From Dehalococcoidia bacterium (lineage in GTDB: Bacteria; Chloroflexota; Dehalococcoidia; DSTF01; JACRBR01), in NCBI GenBank assembly GCA_041494685.1, contig JBGQBE010000035.1, forward strand, positions 1 to 34,020: a DNA stretch of 34,020 nucleotides. The letters run 5' to 3'. The notes below the pieces were generated by a model. The model made no database searches. It worked only from the letters and a program-made list of their open reading frames with translations, and had not been told where the DNA came from. The number at the start of each line of letters is the position of its first letter. Position 1 is the stretch's first letter. Positions 14,169-26,927 of the stretch are shown here, one piece after another. The translations under genes were made by a program, and so were the position numbers.

Positions 14169-14570
14169 TCAGAACGCGCCCTGTTTCTGCAGCCATTTCC
14201 AGAACTCAGGTGGCGCGGACATAGTACTCAGGCGCCCCTGCCGCACCAGCAGCCAGTCGTCGAACTCGTGCGACTCCTTGATCTCGCGCAGCGTCACGAT
14301 GTTCTTCGCGTGCTTCAGGTACTTGAAGTCGGCGACCCAGCTTTTCGTGTCGTTCGGGTCCGGCCGCGGCAGCGACACGACCTCCGCCAGTCCGACGACG
14401 GCCGCCTGCCCCTGCGAGTGGTAGATGATGACGCGGTCGCCCGGCTTCATCGTCTTGATCGCGTTCACCGCCGTCGGATTGCGGACGCCATCCCACGCGG
14501 TCGTGCCGTCGCGTTTCAGGTCGTCGATCGAGTAGGTCTCCGGATCGGTCTTGGCGAGAAAGTAAGCCAT
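14169..14570 (-). CDS. EVE domain-containing protein
   Basis: MAYFLAKTDPETYSIDDL, WDGVRN, MKPGD-x-IIYHS, RQGRLS; AGGAG SD. Confidence 0.92.
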   Translation of the reverse strand: MAYFLAKTDPETYSIDDLKRDGTTAWDGVRNPTAVNAIKTMKPGDRVIIYHSQGQAAVVGLAEVVSLPRPDPNDTKSWVADFKYLKHAKNIVTLREIKESHEFDDWLLVRQGRLSTMSAPPEFWKWLQKQGAF

Positions 14571-14635
14571 GGCGATGCTCCTGATTGCGAGTGGCGTCGT
14601 ACGAAATCGAGCGTAACACGCCGTTCGCCGCGATG

Positions 14636-15502
14636 TCAGCCTGCCTGCTCCTTGAAGCGGCGGATGGCGTCGATGTGCGCCTGCGGCGTCGTGAGGCCGG
14701 CGTTCATCGTGTTCACGCTGACGTGCGACGCGCCGAGGCCGCGCCAGCCATCCAGCGCCGCGCCCCATTGATCCTCCGGCGTGTTGAGCAGGCTGATCCG
14801 CCCTTCGATGCCAAAGTCTTCCGGCTTGCGACCGGCTTCACGGACGTAGCCGCTCAGCTGCTCGATGGTCTCGCTGGCGCGCGGGCCCGGCTGGAACTGC
14901 GGAAACCAACCGTCCGCGATCTTCGCCGCGCGCCGCAGTACGGTCTCGACGCCGCCGCCCATCCAGACCGGGATCGGCCGCTGCACCGGCAGCGGGTTGA
15001 TGCCCGCCTGCTTGACGTGGTGGTACTTGCCGTCGAAGTCGATCAGCTCCTTCGTCCACAACTCCCGCATCAGCGCGATCTGCTCCTCGATACGGCGGCC
15101 GCGGTTGCGGAAGTTCTCGTTCAGCGCCTCGTACTCGACGAAGTTCCAGCCGATGCCGACGCCGAGGCGCATGCGGCCGCGCGACAGCACATCCACCGCG
15201 GCCGCCTGCTTCGCGACGAGCGCCGTCTGCCGCTGCGGCAGGATGACGATGCCGGTCACGAGTTCGATCGATGCCGTGCAGGCGGCGAAGAAGCCGAACA
15301 GCACGAATGGCTCGTGGAACGGCGTGTCGTGCCGGTACGGCGGCCGGAACTTGCCCTCGAACCGGTCCGGGTGCGCGCCCAGCACGTGGTCGAACACGAG
15401 AACGTGGTTGTAGCCCAACTGCTCCGCCGCCTGTGCGTAGTCGCGGATGACGACGGGATCGTTGCCGATCTCGGTCTGGGGGAAAACGACACCTAGCTTC
15501 AT
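14636..15502 (-). CDS. LLM-class (luciferase-like) F420-dependent oxidoreductase
   Basis: GVVFPQTEI, FDHVLG, ILPQRQTALVAKQAA, GRMRLGVGIGWN, IPVWMGG. Confidence 0.9.
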   Translation of the reverse strand: MKLGVVFPQTEIGNDPVVIRDYAQAAEQLGYNHVLVFDHVLGAHPDRFEGKFRPPYRHDTPFHEPFVLFGFFAACTASIELVTGIVILPQRQTALVAKQAAAVDVLSRGRMRLGVGIGWNFVEYEALNENFRNRGRRIEEQIALMRELWTKELIDFDGKYHHVKQAGINPLPVQRPIPVWMGGGVETVLRRAAKIADGWFPQFQPGPRASETIEQLSGYVREAGRKPEDFGIEGRISLLNTPEDQWGAALDGWRGLGASHVSVNTMNAGLTTPQAHIDAIRRFKEQAG

Positions 15503-15585: not shown

Positions 15586-16431
15586 CTACCGCGCCGCGGC
15601 CACGAGCGCGGCGCCAAGCGCGCCGGCGAAGCCGGGCGACGGCACGGTCTCGACCTGCATACCGAACAGGCCGGCCATGTGCGCGATCGACTCGACCAGC
15701 AGCCGGTCATGGTGCACGAACCCGCCCGCCAGCACGATGCGGCGCAGTTGCGCCGCGCTCGCGCGCCCCGCCGCGATCTGGGCGATGTTCTCGCCGTGCA
15801 GGTTCAGCAGCCCGGCCAGCACGTCGTCCTGCGAGCCCTCGAGCGAGCGCGCGAGATGCGCCGCCGTGAGATCCGGGCCGACGCGGCCGATGCCGTCCGG
15901 GTAGACGTCGGAGATCATCGCATCGACGCGGCGCCGGTCGCCCCGCTCCGCCGCGGCGATCATCGCTTCATACGGCAGTGACGCGTCGATGCGGTGCGCG
16001 ATGCCGGCGAAGGAGCCGCCGCCGAGCGCCGTGCCGCCCATGTACGTCACGCTTTCGCCGCGCACTGCCGCGAAGGCAGTGCCCGTCCCCATCAGCGCGA
16101 GCAGGAACGCGCCGTCGCCCAGGCGCCCGTCGACTCTTAGCAGTGCCGCCGCCCCGCACGCGCCGGCCTCGATCTCCTGCACGGCCACGACGCCGGGCGC
16201 CTCGGCAAGCGGTCCCAGCCGCGCGCCCGTCACGCCGGCACGCGGCGCGCCGCCGATCAGCGCCACGCCGGCGGCCGCCACCGTCTCACGCGACTCCAGC
16301 GCGACGCCGGCGGCGGTCGCGCGGGCCACTTTCGTCAGCGTCATACCGGCGTCGACGCCGATAGCGCCGGGCGGCAGCAGGCCGGGGGCGCGCAGCAGCG
16401 CATCGTGCATCGAGTGGACGTGGTCGGCCAT
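15586..16431 (-). CDS. Type II pantothenate kinase (CoaW/Fumble-like), start uncertain
   Basis: GVDAGMTLTK, EIEA, GTGT, GGTALGGG, GDR..VD..ISDVY, TAA, GFAGALGA align with type II PanK motifs. Confidence 0.75.
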   Translation of the reverse strand: MADHVHSMHDALLRAPGLLPPGAIGVDAGMTLTKVARATAAGVALESRETVAAAGVALIGGAPRAGVTGARLGPLAEAPGVVAVQEIEAGACGAAALLRVDGRLGDGAFLLALMGTGTAFAAVRGESVTYMGGTALGGGSFAGIAHRIDASLPYEAMIAAAERGDRRRVDAMISDVYPDGIGRVGPDLTAAHLARSLEGSQDDVLAGLLNLHGENIAQIAAGRASAAQLRRIVLAGGFVHHDRLLVESIAHMAGLFGMQVETVPSPGFAGALGAALVAAAR

Positions 16432-16579
16432 GAATCCGCGGCTCCTGGAGCCCCCATTGTGGATCGGCGGCGGGGCTGCGTCGAATCGGGCGGCGTGGAG
16501 GCGCCCGGCCCGCGGCGGCTACACTGTACCGACGCGACAGGCGCGGGTGCCGCCAGCCGCCGCATCAGGAGACACGACG

Positions 16580-17422
16580 ATGCCTCGATCGATCTGGAAA
16601 GGCGCGGTGAGTTTCGGGATGGTCTCGATCCCGATCAAGCTCTACACCGCCACGGAAGAGAAAGACGTCGCCTTCCACATGCTGCACAAGGCGGACGGCG
16701 TGCGCATCAAGCAGCAGCGCTACTGTCCCGAGGACGACGCCGTCATCGAGTGGAACGACGTCGCTCGCGGCTACGAGATCGCGCCGGAGCAGTACGTGAT
16801 CATGGAGCCGGAGGATTTCGAGAAGGTGCCGATAGACACGACGCGCACCATCGAGATCACCGACTTCGTGCCGGCAGCGCAGATCGACCCGATCTACTAC
16901 CAGAAGACCTACTACCTGGAGCCGGACAAGGTGGGCGGCAAGCCGTTCGCGCTGCTGCGCGAGGTGCTGAAGGGCTCCGAACTGGTGGCGCTGGCGAAGA
17001 TCACGCTGCGGCAGAAGGAGCAGCTCTGCACGCTGCGCGTCTACCAGAACACCATCGCGCTGGAGACGATGCTCTACGCCGATGAACTGCGCAGCGCCGC
17101 GGATCTGGACATCCCCGAGGACATCTCCGTGAACGAGAAGGAACTGGCGATGGCGAAGTCGCTCGTCGACATGCTGACCGGCGAGTTCGAGCCGGAGAAG
17201 TACCACGACAACTACCGTGAGGCGCTGCTGGAGTTGATCGAGCGGAAAGCCGAGGGCCAGGAGATCACACGCCCGGTGCCCGTGGCCGGTAAGGTCACGG
17301 ACCTGATGGAGGCGCTGCGAGCGAGCATCGACTCGGCAAAGCGCGAGCGCGCCGCGCCCGCCGAGGCCGAGCAGGAAGCAGAAGCCGCGCCCAGGCCGGC
17401 GCGGCGCAGGAAGGCTGGATGA
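16580..17422 (+). CDS. ku: NHEJ DNA end-binding protein Ku
   Basis: RSIWKGAVSFGMVSIPIKLYTA, IDPIYYQKTYYL, FEPEKYHDNY, DLMEALRAS; AGGAG SD; basic C-tail. Confidence 0.95.
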   Translation: MPRSIWKGAVSFGMVSIPIKLYTATEEKDVAFHMLHKADGVRIKQQRYCPEDDAVIEWNDVARGYEIAPEQYVIMEPEDFEKVPIDTTRTIEITDFVPAAQIDPIYYQKTYYLEPDKVGGKPFALLREVLKGSELVALAKITLRQKEQLCTLRVYQNTIALETMLYADELRSAADLDIPEDISVNEKELAMAKSLVDMLTGEFEPEKYHDNYREALLELIERKAEGQEITRPVPVAGKVTDLMEALRASIDSAKRERAAPAEAEQEAEAAPRPARRRKAG

Positions 17423-18489
17423 CCTCGTCAGGGATCGACGGCGTCACGACTCCGACGGACATCACGAAGCTGCCCGCACCCGCGGGCGGTGGCGGCATGC
17501 CGGACGCGATCGCGCCCATGCTCGCATCGTCCGCGCCGGAGCCGTTCGACTCACCGGAGTACATCTTCGAGCTGATGTGGGGCGGACTGCGCGCCATGGC
17601 GTACGTCCGCGATGGCGTCGTGCGGCTGCGCGCGCGCAATGGCCGCGACCTGACGCCCTATTTCCCGGAGCTGCTCTGCATCCCGGACAGGCTGCACGCG
17701 AAGGAGGCGATCATCGACGGCGAGATCGTCGCCATCGACGGCGAGGGGCACCCGGCGTTCGACATGCTGCGGCAACGGCTGCAGCTGATGGCCAACGCCG
17801 TCGGCCCGGATCGCGAGCAGGTACCCGAGCTGCCTGTGCAGCTCAAGCTGAAGCGCGTGGCGGGGCAACTGGCGTTCCAGGCGTCCGACCTGCTCTGGCT
17901 CGACGGGCGCCCGCTCGTCGAGCGGCCGCTGTGGCAGCGCAAGAACCGGCTGCACGACGCCGTCATCGCGGGCGCCGAGTTCGCGGCGGTGGATTTCGTC
18001 GACGACGAGGGCATGGCGTTCTACGACGCGGTGCTGGAACGCCGGCTGGAGGGCATCGTCGCCAAGGGGAAGCACAGCCTCTACACGCCTGGCAAACGAT
18101 CGCAGCACTGGCTGGAGATCCGGGCGCTGCAAAGCGGCGACTTCGTGGTCGGCGGCTACACGATCGGCGGCGCGCGCCGGAAGTCGGAGCCGTTCTCGCA
18201 GCTGCTGCTGGGTGGCTACGCGCAGGGCCGATTCGAGTACGTGGGTTCCGTGAGCGGCGGCCTTGGTGATGTCGAGGCGCGGGCGCTCATTGCGGACATG
18301 GAGCCGTTGATCGCGGAGTCGAGCCCGTTCTTCGATACGCCGCGGATCCCGCGGCTGATCTACTGGACGCGGCCTGGGGTCGTGTGCCACGTGCGGTTCA
18401 GCGAGTGGTCGCGGGAGGGGCAGCTGCGCTTCCCGATCTTCAGCGCCCTGCGCCCGGACCTGGCCGCGGCGGACTGCGTGATTGAATAA
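17419..18489 (+). CDS. LigD/LigC-type ATP-dependent DNA ligase domain protein (adenylation + OB) with degenerate catalytic motifs
   Basis: PMLA, RNGRDLT.YFPEL, IIDGEIV, LEGIVAK, Y.PGKRS, VVGGYT, LRFP.F..LRPD; but motif I reads ELMWGG and motif V WLEIR; ATGA overlap with ku. Confidence 0.85.
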   Translation: MTSSGIDGVTTPTDITKLPAPAGGGGMPDAIAPMLASSAPEPFDSPEYIFELMWGGLRAMAYVRDGVVRLRARNGRDLTPYFPELLCIPDRLHAKEAIIDGEIVAIDGEGHPAFDMLRQRLQLMANAVGPDREQVPELPVQLKLKRVAGQLAFQASDLLWLDGRPLVERPLWQRKNRLHDAVIAGAEFAAVDFVDDEGMAFYDAVLERRLEGIVAKGKHSLYTPGKRSQHWLEIRALQSGDFVVGGYTIGGARRKSEPFSQLLLGGYAQGRFEYVGSVSGGLGDVEARALIADMEPLIAESSPFFDTPRIPRLIYWTRPGVVCHVRFSEWSREGQLRFPIFSALRPDLAAADCVIE

Positions 18490-18498
18490 GGGCGCGCG

Positions 18499-18915
18499 TC
18501 AGTCCTCGTCGAACTGGAACGCGGGCTTCGGCTCCTCGATCGGCGTGATGCCGGACTCCAGCAGCTTCCGCTTCTCTTTGAGCGCCTGCTGCTCGCGGTC
18601 GGCGATCGTCTCGAGCTCGCCCTTCGACTTCTTGCGCTTGGGTTTCGGTTTGTTGATCTCGGGATGCTCGTTCATCCGCACCGAGCCGGAGATGGGCTTC
18701 TTCACTTCTTTTTCAAGATGGTAGTAGGTGCCGCGATCGGGGATGGCGCGGGGGTAGCCTTCGCGCATGGTGAACGCGCTGAACGACGTCGGCATCATGC
18801 GCTCGGCCTTGCGGGCGCAGACGGGGCACGCCGCTGCTGCCGAGGCCGTCTTGATCTGCCCCATCGCCTCGAAGACGCCGTCGCAGTGCTTGCAGTAGTA
18901 CTCATACAGTGGCAT
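18499..18915 (-). CDS. FmdB-family zinc-ribbon protein
   Basis: MPLYEYYCKHC...CPVC; Lys-rich C-terminal extension. Confidence 0.85.
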   Translation of the reverse strand: MPLYEYYCKHCDGVFEAMGQIKTASAAAACPVCARKAERMMPTSFSAFTMREGYPRAIPDRGTYYHLEKEVKKPISGSVRMNEHPEINKPKPKRKKSKGELETIADREQQALKEKRKLLESGITPIEEPKPAFQFDED

Positions 18916-18997: not shown

Positions 18998-19801
18998 CTA
19001 CGACTCCCCGTCGGCCGCGATCGCCGCCACCGGGCGGCGCGGCCGTTTGCGGCGCACTGTATCGATGAACGCGGCGGAGCGCACGTCGCGCTCTAGCACC
19101 CAGCGCACGTACTCCAGCAGCGCCCGCTCCAGCTCCGACGCCAGCGACGCATCGACGGACACCCGCGCCACGTCGCTGAAGCGGCCGTGCAGGAGGATCC
19201 GCAGCAGCTTCACGGCGTTGGCCGAGAGCGGGCGCACGGCCGTCTCCTCGGTACGGCACGCCGGGCAAACGACACCGCCGCCCGCCGCCGTCCAGTAGTT
19301 GGTCACGGGATCGAGGCGGCGGCGGCAGGTGACGCACTCCTCCAGCTCCGGGCGGTAGCCCAGCACATCGAGCAGCGCCATCTCGTAGAAGCGCACCGGC
19401 GTGTCGTAGTCGTCGCGCGTCTCAATGCGGCGCAGAGTGTCCAGCAACAGCCGGTAGAGGTCGGCGTGCTCCTCGCGGGGCTCGGTGAACTTGTCCAGGA
19501 GCTCGCAGGCGTAGAGCGCGCGGCTGAGCCGGTCGAGGTCGTCGCGCAGCGTCTGGAACGGCTCGATCGTCTCGACCTGCGTCACGACATCGAGCGACTT
19601 CCCCTTCGCGAGTTGGAAGTTCGCCTGCGTGAGCGGCTCGACGTGCCCTGCCATGCGGCTGCGCGCTTTGCGCACGCCCTTCGCCACCGCATCGACCTTG
19701 CCGAAGCGGGCCGTGTAGAGCGTGACGATCTTGTCAGCTTCTCCCAGCTTGCGCTGGCGCAGCACGATCGCGGGCGTGGTGTAGACGCGTGGCGGCGGCA
19801 T
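18998..19801 (-). CDS. recO: DNA repair protein RecO
   Basis: [44 protein letters not shown]...GGVVCPAC zinc finger; ATG 19801. Confidence 0.95.
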
Positions 19802-19811
19802 GGTGGGATGG

Positions 19812-19897
19812 TAGCAGGTTGGCGGTCTGCGGCTGAGGGTTGGCAATTGGGGATTAATCCACAGATGACGCAGATGGACACAGATTGGCGTGTCCAT
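19812..19897. repeat. Composite intergenic repeat: degenerate 7-mers plus CAGAT repeats and hairpin
   Basis: TAGCAGG TTGGCGG TCTGCGG CTGAGGG TTGGCAA; then CCACAGATG ACGCAGATG GACACAGAT; ATGGACAC/GTGTCCAT stem. Confidence 0.55.
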
Positions 19898-20006
19898 ACC
19901 GTTATGTCGCACTCAGATTCGCGGCCGGGCCTGCGCGTGCGCAGATCGCCTGTCTGTGCGATACTGATTGCATATACAACCATCTCGGAGCCAAGGAGAC
20001 ACGCGC

Positions 20007-23971: not shown

Positions 23972-24538
23972 CTACTCCGGCGGCTTGGCCGCGGCGGGGG
24001 GTGTGTAGCGGGCGGTGCTCGCACGCCGCGCAGGCGCCGCCATCGGTTCCATCGGCGGCTCGGTCTGCGCGCTGCCGACCGGTCGCGGCGCGGGCGCGCT
24101 GCGCTCCGCTCCGCAGTAGGGGCACACCACCCACGACGACGACGCCGGCCGGCCGCACGACTCGCACGCCGTTCGCAGCGTCGAACGACAGTACGGACAG
24201 ACGAGGAAGTCGTCCTCCACTTTGCGGCGGCAGGTCGGACACGTCGCCTGCTCCTGGATCTCGTGCAGCAGCGCCTCCGCCTCCAGGCGGCGGTCGTATA
24301 TCTCGGCCATCGTGTCCTTCGGGCGCAGGATGACGTAGAGCAGCAGGCCCGGCAGGTTAAAGAGCACCACCATACCCAGCGACATCGCCTGCGTGAACGC
24401 GTCGCCCGTGCGGGCGGCGATGTCGCGGTACGTCCACACCAGCGCCGCGATCCACATCACCAGCAGGTAGGCGATCAGCACGATGGCGGCGATCGTCGCC
24501 AGGGCCTGCCAGTTGTCCTGGATCGCGAGCGGTATCAA
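23972..24538 (-). CDS. Membrane protein with double zinc ribbon
   Basis: Two TM helices, then CPTC/CPYC/CESC/CPYC; GAGGAG SD 7 nt before TTG 24538; TGATATAAT extended -10 at 24599-24607 (minus). Confidence 0.8.
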   Translation of the reverse strand: MIPLAIQDNWQALATIAAIVLIAYLLVMWIAALVWTYRDIAARTGDAFTQAMSLGMVVLFNLPGLLLYVILRPKDTMAEIYDRRLEAEALLHEIQEQATCPTCRRKVEDDFLVCPYCRSTLRTACESCGRPASSSWVVCPYCGAERSAPAPRPVGSAQTEPPMEPMAAPARRASTARYTPPAAAKPPE

Positions 24539-24689
24539 GACATATCTCCTCGCTGCGGGGTGGCAAGGCGCGCGGCGCCCCCATGGCACCGCGACGCGAT
24601 TATATCACGGCCGCGGCTGCCGGGCGGCCGCGAGCTTTACGTCGCCGGGCGCTGTCACCCCCCCGCCGGCGCCGGTACGCTGGTGCGGC

Positions 24690-26927
24690 ATGCATATCCT
24701 GGACGATCTGAACCCGCCGCAGCGTGAAGCCGTCACGCACATCGAGGGGCCGCTGCTGATCCTCGCCGGCCCCGGCTCGGGCAAGACGCGCGTCATCGCC
24801 CACCGCATCGCGTACCTGGTCGACGAGGCCGGCGTCGCGCCGTGGCGCATCGTCTCCGTCACCTTCACCAACAAGGCAGCGCGCGAGATGCGCCTCCGCG
24901 TCGTCGCGCACCTGGGCGCGGCGGCGCAGGACCTCGTGCTGGGCACGTTCCACTCGATCTGCGCGCGCCTGCTGCGCACCGAGGGCCCGCGCATCGGCCT
25001 CGATCGCGCGTTCAACATCTACGACGACGCGGACCAGATGGCGCTGATGAAGCGCATCACGGAGTCACTGGGCATCGATTCGAAGCGGTTCAAGGACCGC
25101 GCGATCCTGTCGTCCATCTCGCGCGCGAAGAGCGAGCTGATCACGCCGTACGCCTACGCAACAGCGAGCCGCGACTACTACGAAGAGATCGTCGGGCGGG
25201 CGTACGAGCTATACCAGCAGATGCTCGCCGAAAACAGCGCGCTCGACTTCGACGACCTGATCATGCGCTCGGTCGAGATGCTGCGCGGGAACGAGGAGGT
25301 CCGCGAGAAGTACCAGGAGCGCTTCCTGCACGTGCTGGTGGACGAGTTCCAGGACACGAACATCGCGCAGTACCAGCTCGCGCGGCTCTTCGCCGCGAAG
25401 CACGGCAACATCTGCGTCGTCGGCGACCCCGACCAGTCGATCTACTCGTGGCGGTCGGCGGACATCCGCAACATCATGAACTTCGAGCAGGACTTCCCCG
25501 GCGCGCGCATCGTGCTGCTGGAGCAGAACTACCGCTCGACGCAGACGATCCTCGACGCGGCGCATGCCGTCATCGCCGGCAACAAGCAGCGCAAGCAGAA
25601 GTCGCTGTGGACCGACCGCGGCGGCGGCGAGCCGATCGTGGCGTACGAGGCGTACGACGAGCAGGAGGAGGCGGGCTTCGTCGCGCAGGAGATCGACGGC
25701 ATGTTAAAGGGGCAGTACAGCCCCGGCGACATCGCGGTGATGTACCGCACGAACGCGCAGTCCCGCGCCATCGAGGAGGCGCTGATCGCGGCGCGCATCC
25801 CATACCAGCTCGTGGGCGGCACGCGCTTCTATGAGCGGCGAGAGGTGAAGGACCTACTGGCGTACCTGCGGCTGGCGCACAACTCGTTCGACGCGGTGAG
25901 CTTTCTCCGCGTGGTCAACGTGCCGGGCCGCGGCATCGGCGCGAAGACCATCGCGGAGCTGGAGCGCTGGGCGCGCGCGCGGAATGTGCCGCTGTACACG
26001 ACGCTGCAGCTCATCGCCGCACAGCAGGCGGCCCGCGAGCCGCCGCCGCCGGCCGAGCGGCACCCGATCGCGGCGGCGAAGGCGAACACGCTGCTCGAGT
26101 TCCTGCGGCTGCTCGACGAGTTGATCGACGTAGCGGCGAAGAACAACGTCTCGACGCTGCTGGACGGCGTGATCGAGCGGACGTCGTTCCGGCGTTACCT
26201 GTACGGCGAGTTTGACGAAGGCGACGCGGACGAGCGCTGGGCAAACGTGCAGGAGTTGCAGAACGTCGCCTCAAACTACGACCAGCTGGCGCCGGGCGAG
26301 GGGCTGGTCTCGTTCCTGGAGGACGTGGCGCTGATCTCGGACGCCGACACGATCGCCGAGGCCGAAGGCGGGCGTGACGAGCGTGTGACGCTAATCACGC
26401 TGCACTCGGCGAAGGGGCTGGAGTACCCGGTCGTCTTCATGACCGCGATGGAGGAGGGCGTCCTGCCCCACATCCGCTCGTTCGACGATCCGGCGCAGAT
26501 GGAGGAGGAGCGCCGGCTCTGCTACGTCGGCATGACGCGCGCGAAGGAGCGGCTGTACCTGCTGCGCGCCTTCCGCCGCTACGCGATGGGCGCGTCGCAG
26601 CACGCGCCACCGTCGCGCTTCCTGAAGGACATACCGGCGGAGCTGGTGTCGCAACGCTCGGCCGTGCGCGACGAGGCCGCCGCGGTAGAGCGCGGGCCGC
26701 AGCGCTTCCGCGAGTCGTTCGTCCGCCGCGACGAGCGCCCGTCCGCGGACGACGCCGACCACAACGCGTTCAGCGGCGGCGAGAAGGTGCGCCATCCTCT
26801 GTTCGGCGAAGGCATCGTGGTGTCGGTGATGACGAAGGGGGACGACCAGGAGCTGAAGATCGCGTTCAAGGGCGGCGCCGGCATCAAGAAGCTGATGCTC
26901 TCCTTCGCCCCGCTCGAACGAATGTAG
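24690..26927 (+). CDS. pcrA: UvrD/PcrA superfamily 1 DNA helicase
   Basis: LAGPGSGKT, TFTNKAA, VDEFQDTN, VGDPDQSIYSWR, LEQNYRS, TLHSAKGLEY, EERRLCYVGMTRA, C-terminal Tudor-like V.HPLFGEG. Confidence 0.95.
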   Translation: MHILDDLNPPQREAVTHIEGPLLILAGPGSGKTRVIAHRIAYLVDEAGVAPWRIVSVTFTNKAAREMRLRVVAHLGAAAQDLVLGTFHSICARLLRTEGPRIGLDRAFNIYDDADQMALMKRITESLGIDSKRFKDRAILSSISRAKSELITPYAYATASRDYYEEIVGRAYELYQQMLAENSALDFDDLIMRSVEMLRGNEEVREKYQERFLHVLVDEFQDTNIAQYQLARLFAAKHGNICVVGDPDQSIYSWRSADIRNIMNFEQDFPGARIVLLEQNYRSTQTILDAAHAVIAGNKQRKQKSLWTDRGGGEPIVAYEAYDEQEEAGFVAQEIDGMLKGQYSPGDIAVMYRTNAQSRAIEEALIAARIPYQLVGGTRFYERREVKDLLAYLRLAHNSFDAVSFLRVVNVPGRGIGAKTIAELERWARARNVPLYTTLQLIAAQQAAREPPPPAERHPIAAAKANTLLEFLRLLDELIDVAAKNNVSTLLDGVIERTSFRRYLYGEFDEGDADERWANVQELQNVASNYDQLAPGEGLVSFLEDVALISDADTIAEAEGGRDERVTLITLHSAKGLEYPVVFMTAMEEGVLPHIRSFDDPAQMEEERRLCYVGMTRAKERLYLLRAFRRYAMGASQHAPPSRFLKDIPAELVSQRSAVRDEAAAVERGPQRFRESFVRRDERPSADDADHNAFSGGEKVRHPLFGEGIVVSVMTKGDDQELKIAFKGGAGIKKLMLSFAPLERM

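Follow-up and report, generated by a model that had tools for sequence, protein, structure and literature searches.

The window analysed here is a stretch of 34,020 nt of contig JBGQBE010000035.1 (assembly GCA_041494685.1) from a Dehalococcoidia bacterium of the phylum Chloroflexota. It contains a ku gene and, overlapping its end, a gene for a protein that we call pLig (pseudo-ligase). The features of this gene pair are the following.

16580..17422, plus strand: ku, 280 aa (PF02735, E 5e-51; TIGR02772, 314.8 bits against a cut-off of 150)
17419..17422, plus strand: ATGA overlap of the ku stop codon (TGA) and the pLig start codon (ATG)
17419..18489, plus strand: pLig, 356 aa, a stand-alone LigD-type ligase domain without catalytic lysines (Pfam, TIGR02779, alignment to 1vs0, AF2, Foldseek)
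17515..18117, plus strand: adenylyltransferase (NTase) domain of pLig, residues 33-233 (PF01068)
17569..17592, plus strand: motif I, ELMWGGLR in place of ExKxDGxR (sequence, 1vs0 alignment and family alignment)
17710..17730, plus strand: motif III, IIDGEIV, intact with Asp100, Gly101 and Glu102 (family alignment)
17779..17868, plus strand: linker between motifs III and IIIa, lengthened in this lineage, with a basic LKLKR stretch (low model confidence)
17875..17898, plus strand: motif IIIa, FQASDLLW, with Ser156 (family alignment)
17926..18042, plus strand: surface predicted to hold the Ku C-terminal helix, residues 170-208, PLWQRKNRLH...AVDFVDDEGMAFYDAVLERR (interface of the complex prediction; conservation)
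18046..18066, plus strand: motif IV, LEGIVAK, intact with Glu211 and Lys216 (family alignment)
18109..18123, plus strand: motif V, WLEIR in place of WxKxK (1vs0 alignment; equivalences from PMC4770248)
18187..18459, plus strand: OB-fold domain, residues 257-347 (PF04679 and AF2 model)
18448..18462, plus strand: motif VI region, LRPDL, with Leu348 at the terminal Lys of RxDK (family alignment)

The upstream gene codes for a bacterial Ku protein, with the beta-barrel core (PF02735) and a TIGR02772 score above the cut-off. Since PF02735 finds one match in the source genome, this is the sole Ku gene found there. An alignment of Ku sequences shows that the C-terminus consists of a conserved minimal helix (about residues 237-254) followed by a basic tail ending in RRKAG. 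The overlap between the TGA of ku and the ATG of pLig suggests that the two genes are translationally coupled. This arrangement recurs: of 20 orthologue loci, 19 have ku directly upstream of pLig and in the same orientation, and 17 of these 19 show the -4 overlap (ATGA), as does a more distant locus (L063). Elsewhere in the class the genes are ordered ligD-ku-pLig, or ku-ligD with a convergent pLig. A scan of positions 16300-18700 for promoters and terminators returned no sigma-70-like promoter; its single terminator-like hit was a minus-strand hairpin within ku, a count at chance level. We also considered a defence system and dropped this reading, as PADLOC matched neither pLig nor Ku nor two neighbouring genes.

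The pLig frame runs from 17419 to 18489 without internal stops and encodes both parts of an ATP-dependent DNA ligase core of the covalent nucleotidyltransferase superfamily. The adenylyltransferase domain (PF01068, 87.9 bits, E 9.6e-25) and the OB fold (PF04679, 71.8 bits, E 6.4e-20) both score above their cut-offs, and these are the only two Pfam domains in the protein. The absence of a polymerase or phosphoesterase domain in this search sets pLig apart from multidomain LigD (TIGR02776 / PRK09632). The closest sequence match is a LigD ligase domain (E ~1e-39). An AF2 model of good quality (pLDDT 89.2, pTM 0.86) used as a Foldseek query retrieved LigD together with archaeal or human ligases among the top matches, with the ligase domain of M. 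tuberculosis LigD (6nhz, 6nhx and 1vs0, E ~1e-26) as the best. With TIGR02779, the equivalog model for NHEJ DNA ligases, pLig scores 209 bits, below the cut-off of 227.75. The linker between motifs III and IIIa measures 41-48 aa in most orthologues of the pLig family, compared to 30-35 aa in other LigD-type ligases. An apparent 30-residue insertion after motif III was dropped from consideration, because measurement against 48 relatives reduced the lengthening to 6-13 residues.

To describe which catalytic residues are lost and which are kept, we aligned pLig residue by residue to 1vs0, the ligase domain of M. tuberculosis LigD (Rv0938), and tabulated residue states in 121 pLig-family sequences and 115 canonical representatives. 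ELMWGGLR of pLig lies opposite EGKWDGYR of 1vs0, so that Met53 (ATG, 17575-17577) takes the place of the AMP-accepting lysine K481, and Gly55 (GGC, 17581-17583) takes the place of the aspartate. Position 53 is Met in 97, Leu in 16 and Lys in 7 of the family sequences, whereas it is Lys in all 115 canonical representatives. Position 55, an aspartate in canonical enzymes, is Gly in 112, Ser in 5 and Ala in 3 of the 121. In motif V, WLEIR lies opposite WVKDK, with Glu233 and Arg235 at the positions of K635 and K637 of M. tuberculosis LigD; in the family the motif V lysine is replaced by Glu (74), Gln (27), Asp (8) or Ala (4). Relative to canonical enzymes the substitutions in pLig are thus Lys53Met, Asp55Gly, Lys233Glu, Lys235Arg and Lys348Leu. 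The sequence-only reading of this DNA had described the motif I and motif V replacements at these codons in an uninterrupted frame that overlaps ku, together with intact motifs III and IV, an intact OB domain and no polymerase or phosphoesterase domain, and each of these points holds. Its further claim of a change from FD to SD in motif IIIa stands for pLig itself, which does contain Ser156, but not as a family trait: Ser is a minority state (11 of 121) at a position that is Phe in 96. The motif VI change is an additional observation absent from that reading; position 348 is Leu, Ile, Val or Met in 119 of the 121 sequences.

Among the residues that remain, Asp100 is present in all 121 family members, Glu102 and Lys216 are present in 119 each, and Arg58, Asp100, Glu102, Glu211, Lys216 and Trp231 each occur in at least 108. 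About half of the nucleotide pocket is strictly kept in the family (Arg58, Glu102, Lys216 and, mostly, Phe156). Among lysines, only Lys216 of motif IV and Lys218, two residues on, reach at least 90% conservation in the family alignment.

PMC4770248 describes K481, K635 and K637 of M. tuberculosis LigD as active-site residues for ligation and reports that alanine variants at the equivalent positions of the B. subtilis enzyme are ligation-deficient. This paper is the basis for treating the equivalent lysines as essential, and the motifs suggest that pLig is inactive as a ligase. The same state exists as a laboratory product: the engineered dead LigD proteins in 6nhz and 6nhx carry EGMWDGYR in motif I, with the Lys-to-Met change that occurs naturally in pLig, and the ligation-deficient K24A variant of B. 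subtilis LigD retains both its fold and its lyase activity (PMC4770248). Unlike these point mutants, pLig is a natural protein with four further losses that is conserved across a bacterial family.

Conservation of this kind leaves almost no probability for a recent pseudogene or for an assembly or sequencing error. Of 24 genomes from the same family, 20 contain an intact pLig orthologue (62-77% identity) with the same substitutions; the motif I lysine is absent in all 20 of these related Chloroflexota sequences and none has KxDG. In the same genomes full LigD, a LigC-like ligase and a fourth ligase type keep ExKxDGxR. In 91 pairs from 14 genomes the median pairwise identity is 65.4% for pLig, 68.3% for the LigD ligase domain and 78.7% for Ku, and the corresponding Nei-Gojobori dN/dS values are 0.32, 0.315 and 0.20, values that are comparative only because dS is compressed by a GC3 of ~0.9. 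By this measure pLig is under purifying selection at a rate like that of the active LigD ligase domain. Contigs from two public runs, each belonging to a different study (X1 and X2), span 17575-17583 and list no difference there; X1 may be the source sample itself, and the contigs of the second study match pLig in its motif I codons. A search for sequencing runs listed 16, with no RNA data set among them. The points in favour of decay or error are the TIGR02779 score below the cut-off and one relative (G019) in which the pLig gene is spread over several frames. We rejected the latter as a sign of decay, since the neighbouring pantothenate-kinase-like gene of G019 is likewise broken into several frames, a pattern that suggests indel errors in the assembly. 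The earlier expectation that the K-to-M, D-to-G and K-to-E changes reflect neither sequencing error nor recent decay is hence borne out by orthologues, substitution rates and independent contigs. pLig combines the loss of essential residues in a recognizable homologue with an intact frame under purifying selection, the two features by which a pseudoenzyme is identified from sequence.

A hidden ligase activity, either with another nucleophile or restricted to the late steps on pre-adenylylated DNA, also seems very unlikely. It would be in line with intact motifs III and IV, with the intact OB fold, and with the lysine that persists in seven of the 121 close family members and in a sister group with the motif ELKWGGVR. 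Against it, Lys218 is the only lysine besides Lys216 that is kept in at least 90% of the family, the motif I aspartate and both motif V lysines are gone as well, and B. subtilis LigD no longer ligates when any one of the equivalent lysines is changed to alanine (PMC4770248).

The source genome does encode a ligase that appears competent for this chemistry. A search for an active ligD, proposed along with the original observation, located one complete LigD on another contig (C1) with phosphoesterase, ligase, OB and Prim-Pol domains and the motif I sequence EPKLDGVR; the single PF21686 match of the genome lies inside this protein. LigD of ~700-1040 aa accompanies pLig in 19 of 20 same-family relatives, and degenerate stand-alone ligases occur beside LigD of this size in 9 of 14 genomes from other families. 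pLig does not belong to the clade of full-length LigD ligase domains but to a separate clade of stand-alone proteins. At the base of this clade are canonical relatives encoded directly after ku. In four genomes such a canonical relative is the only PF01068 match, and one has a separate Pol gene alongside. Judging from the motifs, catalytic residues have been lost repeatedly in this ku-linked clade within the class. A homologue search gave 19,598 matches, of which the best 150 were listed, and a homologue with the sequence EPLRGGLR occurs in a MAG that bears the name Thermoflexus hugenholtzii (L068). Three genomes contain an intact degenerate gene, but no Ku and no other ATP-dependent ligase was found in them: G002 (95% complete), G101 (98% complete, one contig) and G074 (95% complete). 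The orphan copies of G101 and G074 are flanked by unrelated housekeeping genes, and their wider context revealed no informative partner genes.

Complex prediction points to Ku as a partner of pLig. Residues 27-356 of pLig with residues 186-280 of Ku gave a median score of 0.69 (runs: 0.70, 0.69, 0.69), compared to 0.01 for the best of three controls. The mark for this score is reached by 116 of 157 solved complexes and by 2 of 215 mismatched pairs, counts that serve only as a rough guide here because the alignments were custom-made. At least 95% of the contacts are shared between the runs, and the partner pLDDT is at least 64. In the predicted interface Ku residues 227-254, including the invariant L242, M243, L246 and S249, pack against pLig residues 170-208, including Leu178. 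By hand alignment, Arg177 and Leu178 (17947-17952) are the equivalents of K579 and L580 of M. tuberculosis LigD; Leu178 is present in all 121 family sequences, and PMC13717202 reports that L580E weakens Ku binding in the M. tuberculosis protein. The model supports the idea that the Ku C-terminal helix binds the same surface on pLig that LigD uses for Ku. The score may also reflect the likeness of this pair to known or modelled Ku-LigD interfaces, rather than binding retained by pLig.

pLig thus resembles the LigD ligase domain and TIGR02779 ligases in its adenylyltransferase and OB folds, in motifs III and IV, in the adjacent ku and in the predicted Ku surface with its L580 equivalent. It differs by replacement of Lys and Asp in motif I, of the two lysines in motif V and of Lys in motif VI, by the lack of Pol or PE domains, by its TIGR02779 score below the cut-off and by its separate stand-alone clade. 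We tentatively favour the interpretation that pLig is a non-catalytic Ku partner in end joining that leaves the chemistry to the separate LigD. The protein would have kept the ligase fold and lost self-adenylylation and DNA sealing. Ku and pLig would be produced jointly from a two-gene operon by way of the ATGA overlap, and pLig would dock on the conserved C-terminal helix of Ku via the adenylyltransferase-domain surface that real LigD ligase domains use. At broken ends it could then hold or protect the DNA end and stabilise the Ku-end assembly, and 3' end cleaning, gap filling and sealing would be done by the complete LigD encoded on the other contig. That pLig binds DNA ends, and that it promotes joining as a scaffold instead of restraining it, are the most conjectural parts of this proposal. 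The three genomes that keep the gene where neither Ku nor LigD was found speak against an obligate role with Ku, as an obligate accessory would be expected to be lost there. The kept half of the nucleotide pocket counts against a pure scaffold, which has no obvious need of those residues.

Docking on the same site could also make pLig a brake or decoy that competes with the LigD ligase domain for the Ku C-terminal helix and the 5'-phosphate end, and so restrains or times error-prone joining. We consider this rather unlikely, although several observations fit it: the predicted interface involves the same Ku helix and ligase-domain surface as in LigD (PMC13717202 and PMC13201618), inert proteins that occupy a shared site are classic dominant negatives, and stoichiometric co-translation with Ku would saturate the Ku arms. 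On the other hand, the Ku dimer has two arms, which makes co-occupancy of pLig with LigD just as possible, and single-strand ligD-ku-pLig clusters look like co-operating parts. The evidence fits a positive scaffold and a brake alike. An improbable alternative is a Ku-independent role as a different enzyme, with a ligation-independent activity such as a 5'-dRP/AP lyase, or as a binder of nucleotides or adenylylated ends via the retained half-pocket. According to PMC4770248, the isolated B. subtilis LigD ligase domain keeps its activity as a 5'-dRP lyase after the changes K24A, K189A, K206A, K208A and E184A, and both the pocket residues kept throughout the family and the intact copies in the three genomes without detected Ku or LigD could be read this way. 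On the other side, the retained residues may simply hold the fold, and the tight link to ku at 19 of the 20 orthologue loci speaks for a function tied to Ku in this lineage.

A broader scheme joins several of these ideas, and we offer it as speculation that is more probably wrong than right. In this scheme the class would use a three-part NHEJ of Ku, LigD and dead ligase. Active Ku-coupled ligases would have turned into dead ones several times, after a fused LigD had become available. The adenosine-binding half-pocket would read a nucleotide state (a 5'-phosphate or 5'-adenylylated end, or the ATP level), and the break would be held on the arm of Ku until LigD acts.

Split NHEJ systems, in which ku, lig, pol and pe are individual genes, occur in archaea and actinobacteria. 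They resemble the canonical stand-alone clade members, whose genomes yielded no other ATP ligase. The stand-alone ligase of a split system must be active, whereas pLig is probably not, and the fused LigD supplies the activities. A structural role of a ligase module, as proposed for pLig, would have an analogue in eukaryotic DNA ligase IV: according to PMC10858965, assembly of the synaptic complex requires this enzyme to bind DNA ends, irrespective of sealing. Ligase IV is also an active ligase, whereas for pLig the structural and catalytic copies would be separate genes. pLig differs further in having no XRCC4-type partner, and homology between the two is confined to the ATP-ligase core.

The usual account of bacterial end joining involves two proteins, Ku and LigD, and to our knowledge the structural job of the ligase module has so far been studied with engineered dead mutants. 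Full-text searches of open-access main texts, and term look-ups in PMC7719229, PMC7470946, PMC10140301 and PMC12658125, revealed no account of a LigD-type ligase that naturally lacks the lysine. Public records name such proteins "non-homologous end-joining DNA ligase", "bifunctional NHEJ protein LigD" or "hypothetical protein", so that domain-based surveys of NHEJ ligases will miscount genes of the pLig type. A whole bacterial family and, independently, several related lineages keep a presumably dead ligase, probably coupled to Ku in translation, while the active LigD is separate, which amounts to a natural experiment. The ku-pLig pair offers a clean system for studying the non-catalytic functions of a ligase, such as end holding, synapsis and the order of processing and sealing. 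The stand-alone clade documents a path by which a pseudoenzyme is born, from an active Ku-adjacent ligase via partial to full loss of the catalytic residues. If the three-part scheme is true, these bacteria would have naturally assigned to separate proteins the structural role and the catalytic role that are united in eukaryotic ligase IV.

Immediately downstream of ku, the window encodes a LigD-type ligase domain without catalytic lysines (pLig, a pseudo-ligase). The sequence-only reading had described an intact frame that overlaps ku by ATGA and has lost motifs I and V; the 356 open codons, the codon positions and the alignment to LigD bear this out.

Features of the ku-pLig pair
16580..17422, + strand: ku, a standard bacterial Ku (TIGR02772, 314.8 bits)
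17419..18489, + strand: pLig, 356 open codons
17419-17422, + strand: ATGA, which contains the TGA of ku and begins pLig
pLig residues 33-233, + strand: PF01068, adenylyltransferase (Pfam)
pLig residues 257-347, + strand: PF04679, OB fold (Pfam)
17575-17577 (ATG) and 17581-17583 (GGC), + strand: Lys and Asp positions of motif I, ELMWGGLR
18109-18123, + strand: motif V, WLEIR

Pfam finds no further domain in pLig besides the ligase pair, in agreement with the earlier claim that polymerase and phosphoesterase domains are absent. The top NCBIfam model is TIGR02779 (NHEJ ligase), with 209 bits under a cut-off of 227.75. Among solved structures, the nearest is that of the M. tuberculosis LigD ligase domain, where EGKWDGYR stands opposite ELMWGGLR and WVKDK opposite WLEIR. 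An AF2 model of pLig (pLDDT 89.2, pTM 0.86; low only at residues 1-23, ~131-140 and ~251-260) resembles LigD and other ATP ligases in a fold search.

Among 24 same-family genomes, including the unpublished genome G021, 20 contain an intact orthologue (62-77% identity). In G019 the orthologue is spread over several frames, and none was found in G008 (94% complete), G022 (84%) and G015 (51%). The motif I lysine is missing in all 20 intact orthologues (E[LP][ML][WC][GS]GxR), so that the loss of KxDG first read from one sequence extends to each of them. Full-length LigD in these genomes reads E[PA]K[LF]DGVR (the motif pattern failed at 2 of the 14 LigD loci sampled); the other ligases are LigC-like (EPKWDGFR) or of a fourth type (ERK[FYL]DGIR). 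No difference is listed at the motif I codons in the contigs that span them from two public runs (different studies; one run may be the source sample). pLig is as constrained as the live LigD ligase domain, in a comparison of dN/dS that counts only between proteins because dS is compressed by a GC3 of ~0.9.

Median identity over 91 pairs from 14 genomes, and Nei-Gojobori dN/dS (comparative only)
pLig: 65.4%; 0.32
LigD ligase domain: 68.3%; 0.315
Ku: 78.7%; 0.20

A word-indexed protein search with pLig gave 772 matches at E <= 1e-10 among 8000 candidates scored. We counted motif states in the 120 best matches (61-94% identity) plus the query.

Residues at canonical Lys and Asp positions in 121 sequences
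Motif I Lys (canonical K): M97, L16, K7, gap 1
Motif I Asp (canonical D): G112, S5, A3
Motif V first Lys (canonical K): E74, Q27, D8, A4
Motif V second Lys (canonical K): R120
Motif VI Lys (canonical K): L/I/V/M in 119

All 115 canonical representatives carry the expected residue (K, D, K) at the first three of these sites. Glu51, Gly56, Arg58, Asp100, Gly101, Glu102, Asp157, Glu211, Gly212, Lys216 and Trp231 are retained in at least 108 of the 121. The SD noted earlier at motif IIIa is present here (Ser156) but is a minority state of the family (F96, S11; n = 121). Cys323 (18385-18387) and Cys353 (18475-18477) are both nearly invariant; the latter, close to the C-terminus, persists in at least 90% of sequences even when canonical stand-alone ligases are included in a broad alignment. 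In this family the linker between motifs III and IIIa (17779-17868) exceeds that of other LigD-type ligases by 6-13 residues. Modelled with low confidence, it contains a basic, semi-conserved stretch, [LF][KR]x[KR][RK], and might serve as a loop that contacts DNA or protein. The 26-residue N-terminal extension (17419-17496; MTxSSLDDxT-like) is predicted to be disordered; in 17 of 19 loci it shares its frame with the ATGA start. The conserved Met27 is given as the start in many database entries instead.

The pair sits in a chromosomal neighborhood whose synteny extends across relatives, in the order EVE-domain gene, luciferase-like gene, PanK-like gene, ku, pLig, zinc-ribbon gene, recO. PADLOC gave no match on it. 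ku lies immediately upstream on the same strand at 19 of 20 orthologue loci, 17 of which keep the four-base ATGA overlap; the overlap also occurs in a Chloroflexia MAG (L063) at a locus only 48% identical. The exception is G002, from a related genus (95% complete; L027, 5298-4231, minus strand, versus window 15586-18489), where ku is lost from an otherwise syntenic locus, the dead ligase is intact at 72% identity, and neither Ku nor another ATP ligase was found anywhere in the genome. In its congener G019, ku adjoins a full ligD elsewhere in the genome. recO (18998-19912, -), syntenic in relatives, and a UvrD/PcrA-type helicase gene (24483-26927, +) lie less than 8 kb from ku-pLig. The longest frames of the EVE-domain gene (14169-14768, -) and the luciferase-like gene (14636-15502, -) overlap by ~130 bases, likely because a start codon was called too far upstream.

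The genome of the window (97.6% complete) has one Ku and two PF01068 matches. The search for an active ligD proposed earlier succeeded: the second match falls in a ~960-aa open frame on another contig. This frame combines phosphoesterase, ligase, OB and Prim-Pol domains, and its motifs read EPKLDGVR and WLKVK. NAD-dependent LigA is also present.

Published work places the minimal C-terminal region of Ku on the LigD ligase domain, with contributions from D522, K579 and L580 of M. tuberculosis LigD and lower Ku affinity for L580E (PMC13717202); in B. subtilis models, helix 240-258 of Ku lies against that domain (PMC13201618). By hand alignment from the LigD comparison, K579/L580 correspond to Arg177/Leu178 of pLig, conserved in 116/121 and 121/121 sequences. 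A controlled complex prediction, run on alignments of pLig 27-356 and Ku 186-280, reached 0.69 (best control 0.01; run-to-run contact agreement at least 95%, partner pLDDT at least 64). The score mark, only roughly valid here since we used our own alignments, was reached by 116/157 solved complexes and 2/215 mismatched pairs. The predicted interface joins Ku 227-254 to pLig 170-208, plus 49-52 and 106-111. This model supports, rather than shows, Ku binding by pLig, and its pass may reflect likeness because Ku-LigD interfaces were already known.

Scanned in full, a set of 1.84 billion representatives yielded 19,598 homologues; of the best 150, 115 are canonical at four sites and ~35 degenerate in various ways. 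Close relatives (E <= 1e-66) occur in 32 of 401 genomes sampled evenly across the class, 27 degenerate and five canonical; related genomes are not independent samples, and therefore we give counts only. All five canonical members directly follow ku, and in four the stand-alone ligase is the sole PF01068 match of the genome. LigD of ~700-1040 aa accompanies 9 of 14 degenerate members outside the family and 19 of 20 pLig carriers within it. Gene orders include ku-pLig and a one-strand ligD-ku-pLig; in another, pLig is convergent to ku-ligD. One-strand trios in which ku and the degenerate ligase are joined by a ligD of Lig-Pol or PE-Lig-Pol type occur at L063 985-4996, L186 and L178 (the latter two in G175 and G142). 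Another group that is lysine-less independently, EV[LI]W[DE]G[LV]R, in genomes of family f60 (L165-L167, L173, L183, L185, L187, L188), has the degenerate ligase right behind a ku-ligD operon and in convergent orientation, not after ku.

In IQ-TREE trees (careful and quick; motif columns removed, rooted on full-length LigD ligase domains), stand-alone proteins lie apart from LigD domains, and the degenerate groups leave out the canonical ku-adjacent members. The family of the window is a 100/100 clade nested in a 98/96 clade with proteins that keep the Lys but have GG at motif I and E/D at motif V. Lysine loss requires six changes, and well-supported branches make at least four of them unavoidable. 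A single lysine-less clade is rejected by an AU test (p 0.00017; group named after the tree was seen). Judging from these sequences, an active Ku-coupled ligase likely passed through partial to full loss more than once, mostly where a fused LigD was present.

Full-text literature searches turned up no account of a LigD-type ligase that naturally lacks the lysine, and databases name these proteins ligases or hypothetical. Ligase-dead mycobacterial LigD reportedly still supports end joining, with a backup ligase. Engineered dead LigD is already known: PDB 6nhz and 6nhx carry Met at the motif I Lys position, as pLig does. In vertebrates, ligase IV is described as having a structural role (PMC10858965).

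How might such a protein work? pLig could act as a brake by vying with LigD for one and the same helix of Ku, which we consider unlikely. Less likely again is a retained ligation-independent activity or ligand binding; in its favor, ligation-dead B. subtilis ligase-domain mutants have dRP-lyase activity (PMC4770248), half of the nucleotide pocket is still kept in pLig, and intact degenerate copies persist in three genomes without detected Ku or LigD (G002, G101, G074). That a protein with these substitutions is a cryptic ligase seems very improbable, and decay or error, set beside the intact orthologues, is scarcely credible.

The reading we favor, tentatively, is that pLig may be a non-catalytic Ku partner, which would be made together with Ku, held on the Ku arm and probably also on the DNA end, and would leave the chemistry to the separately encoded LigD. 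A degenerate homologue (EPLRGGLR, WVAVR) is found at L068 135-1130, on a contig of only 3.6 kb, in a MAG labelled Thermoflexus hugenholtzii; as this is a cultured species, the homologue could provide an experimental entry point.
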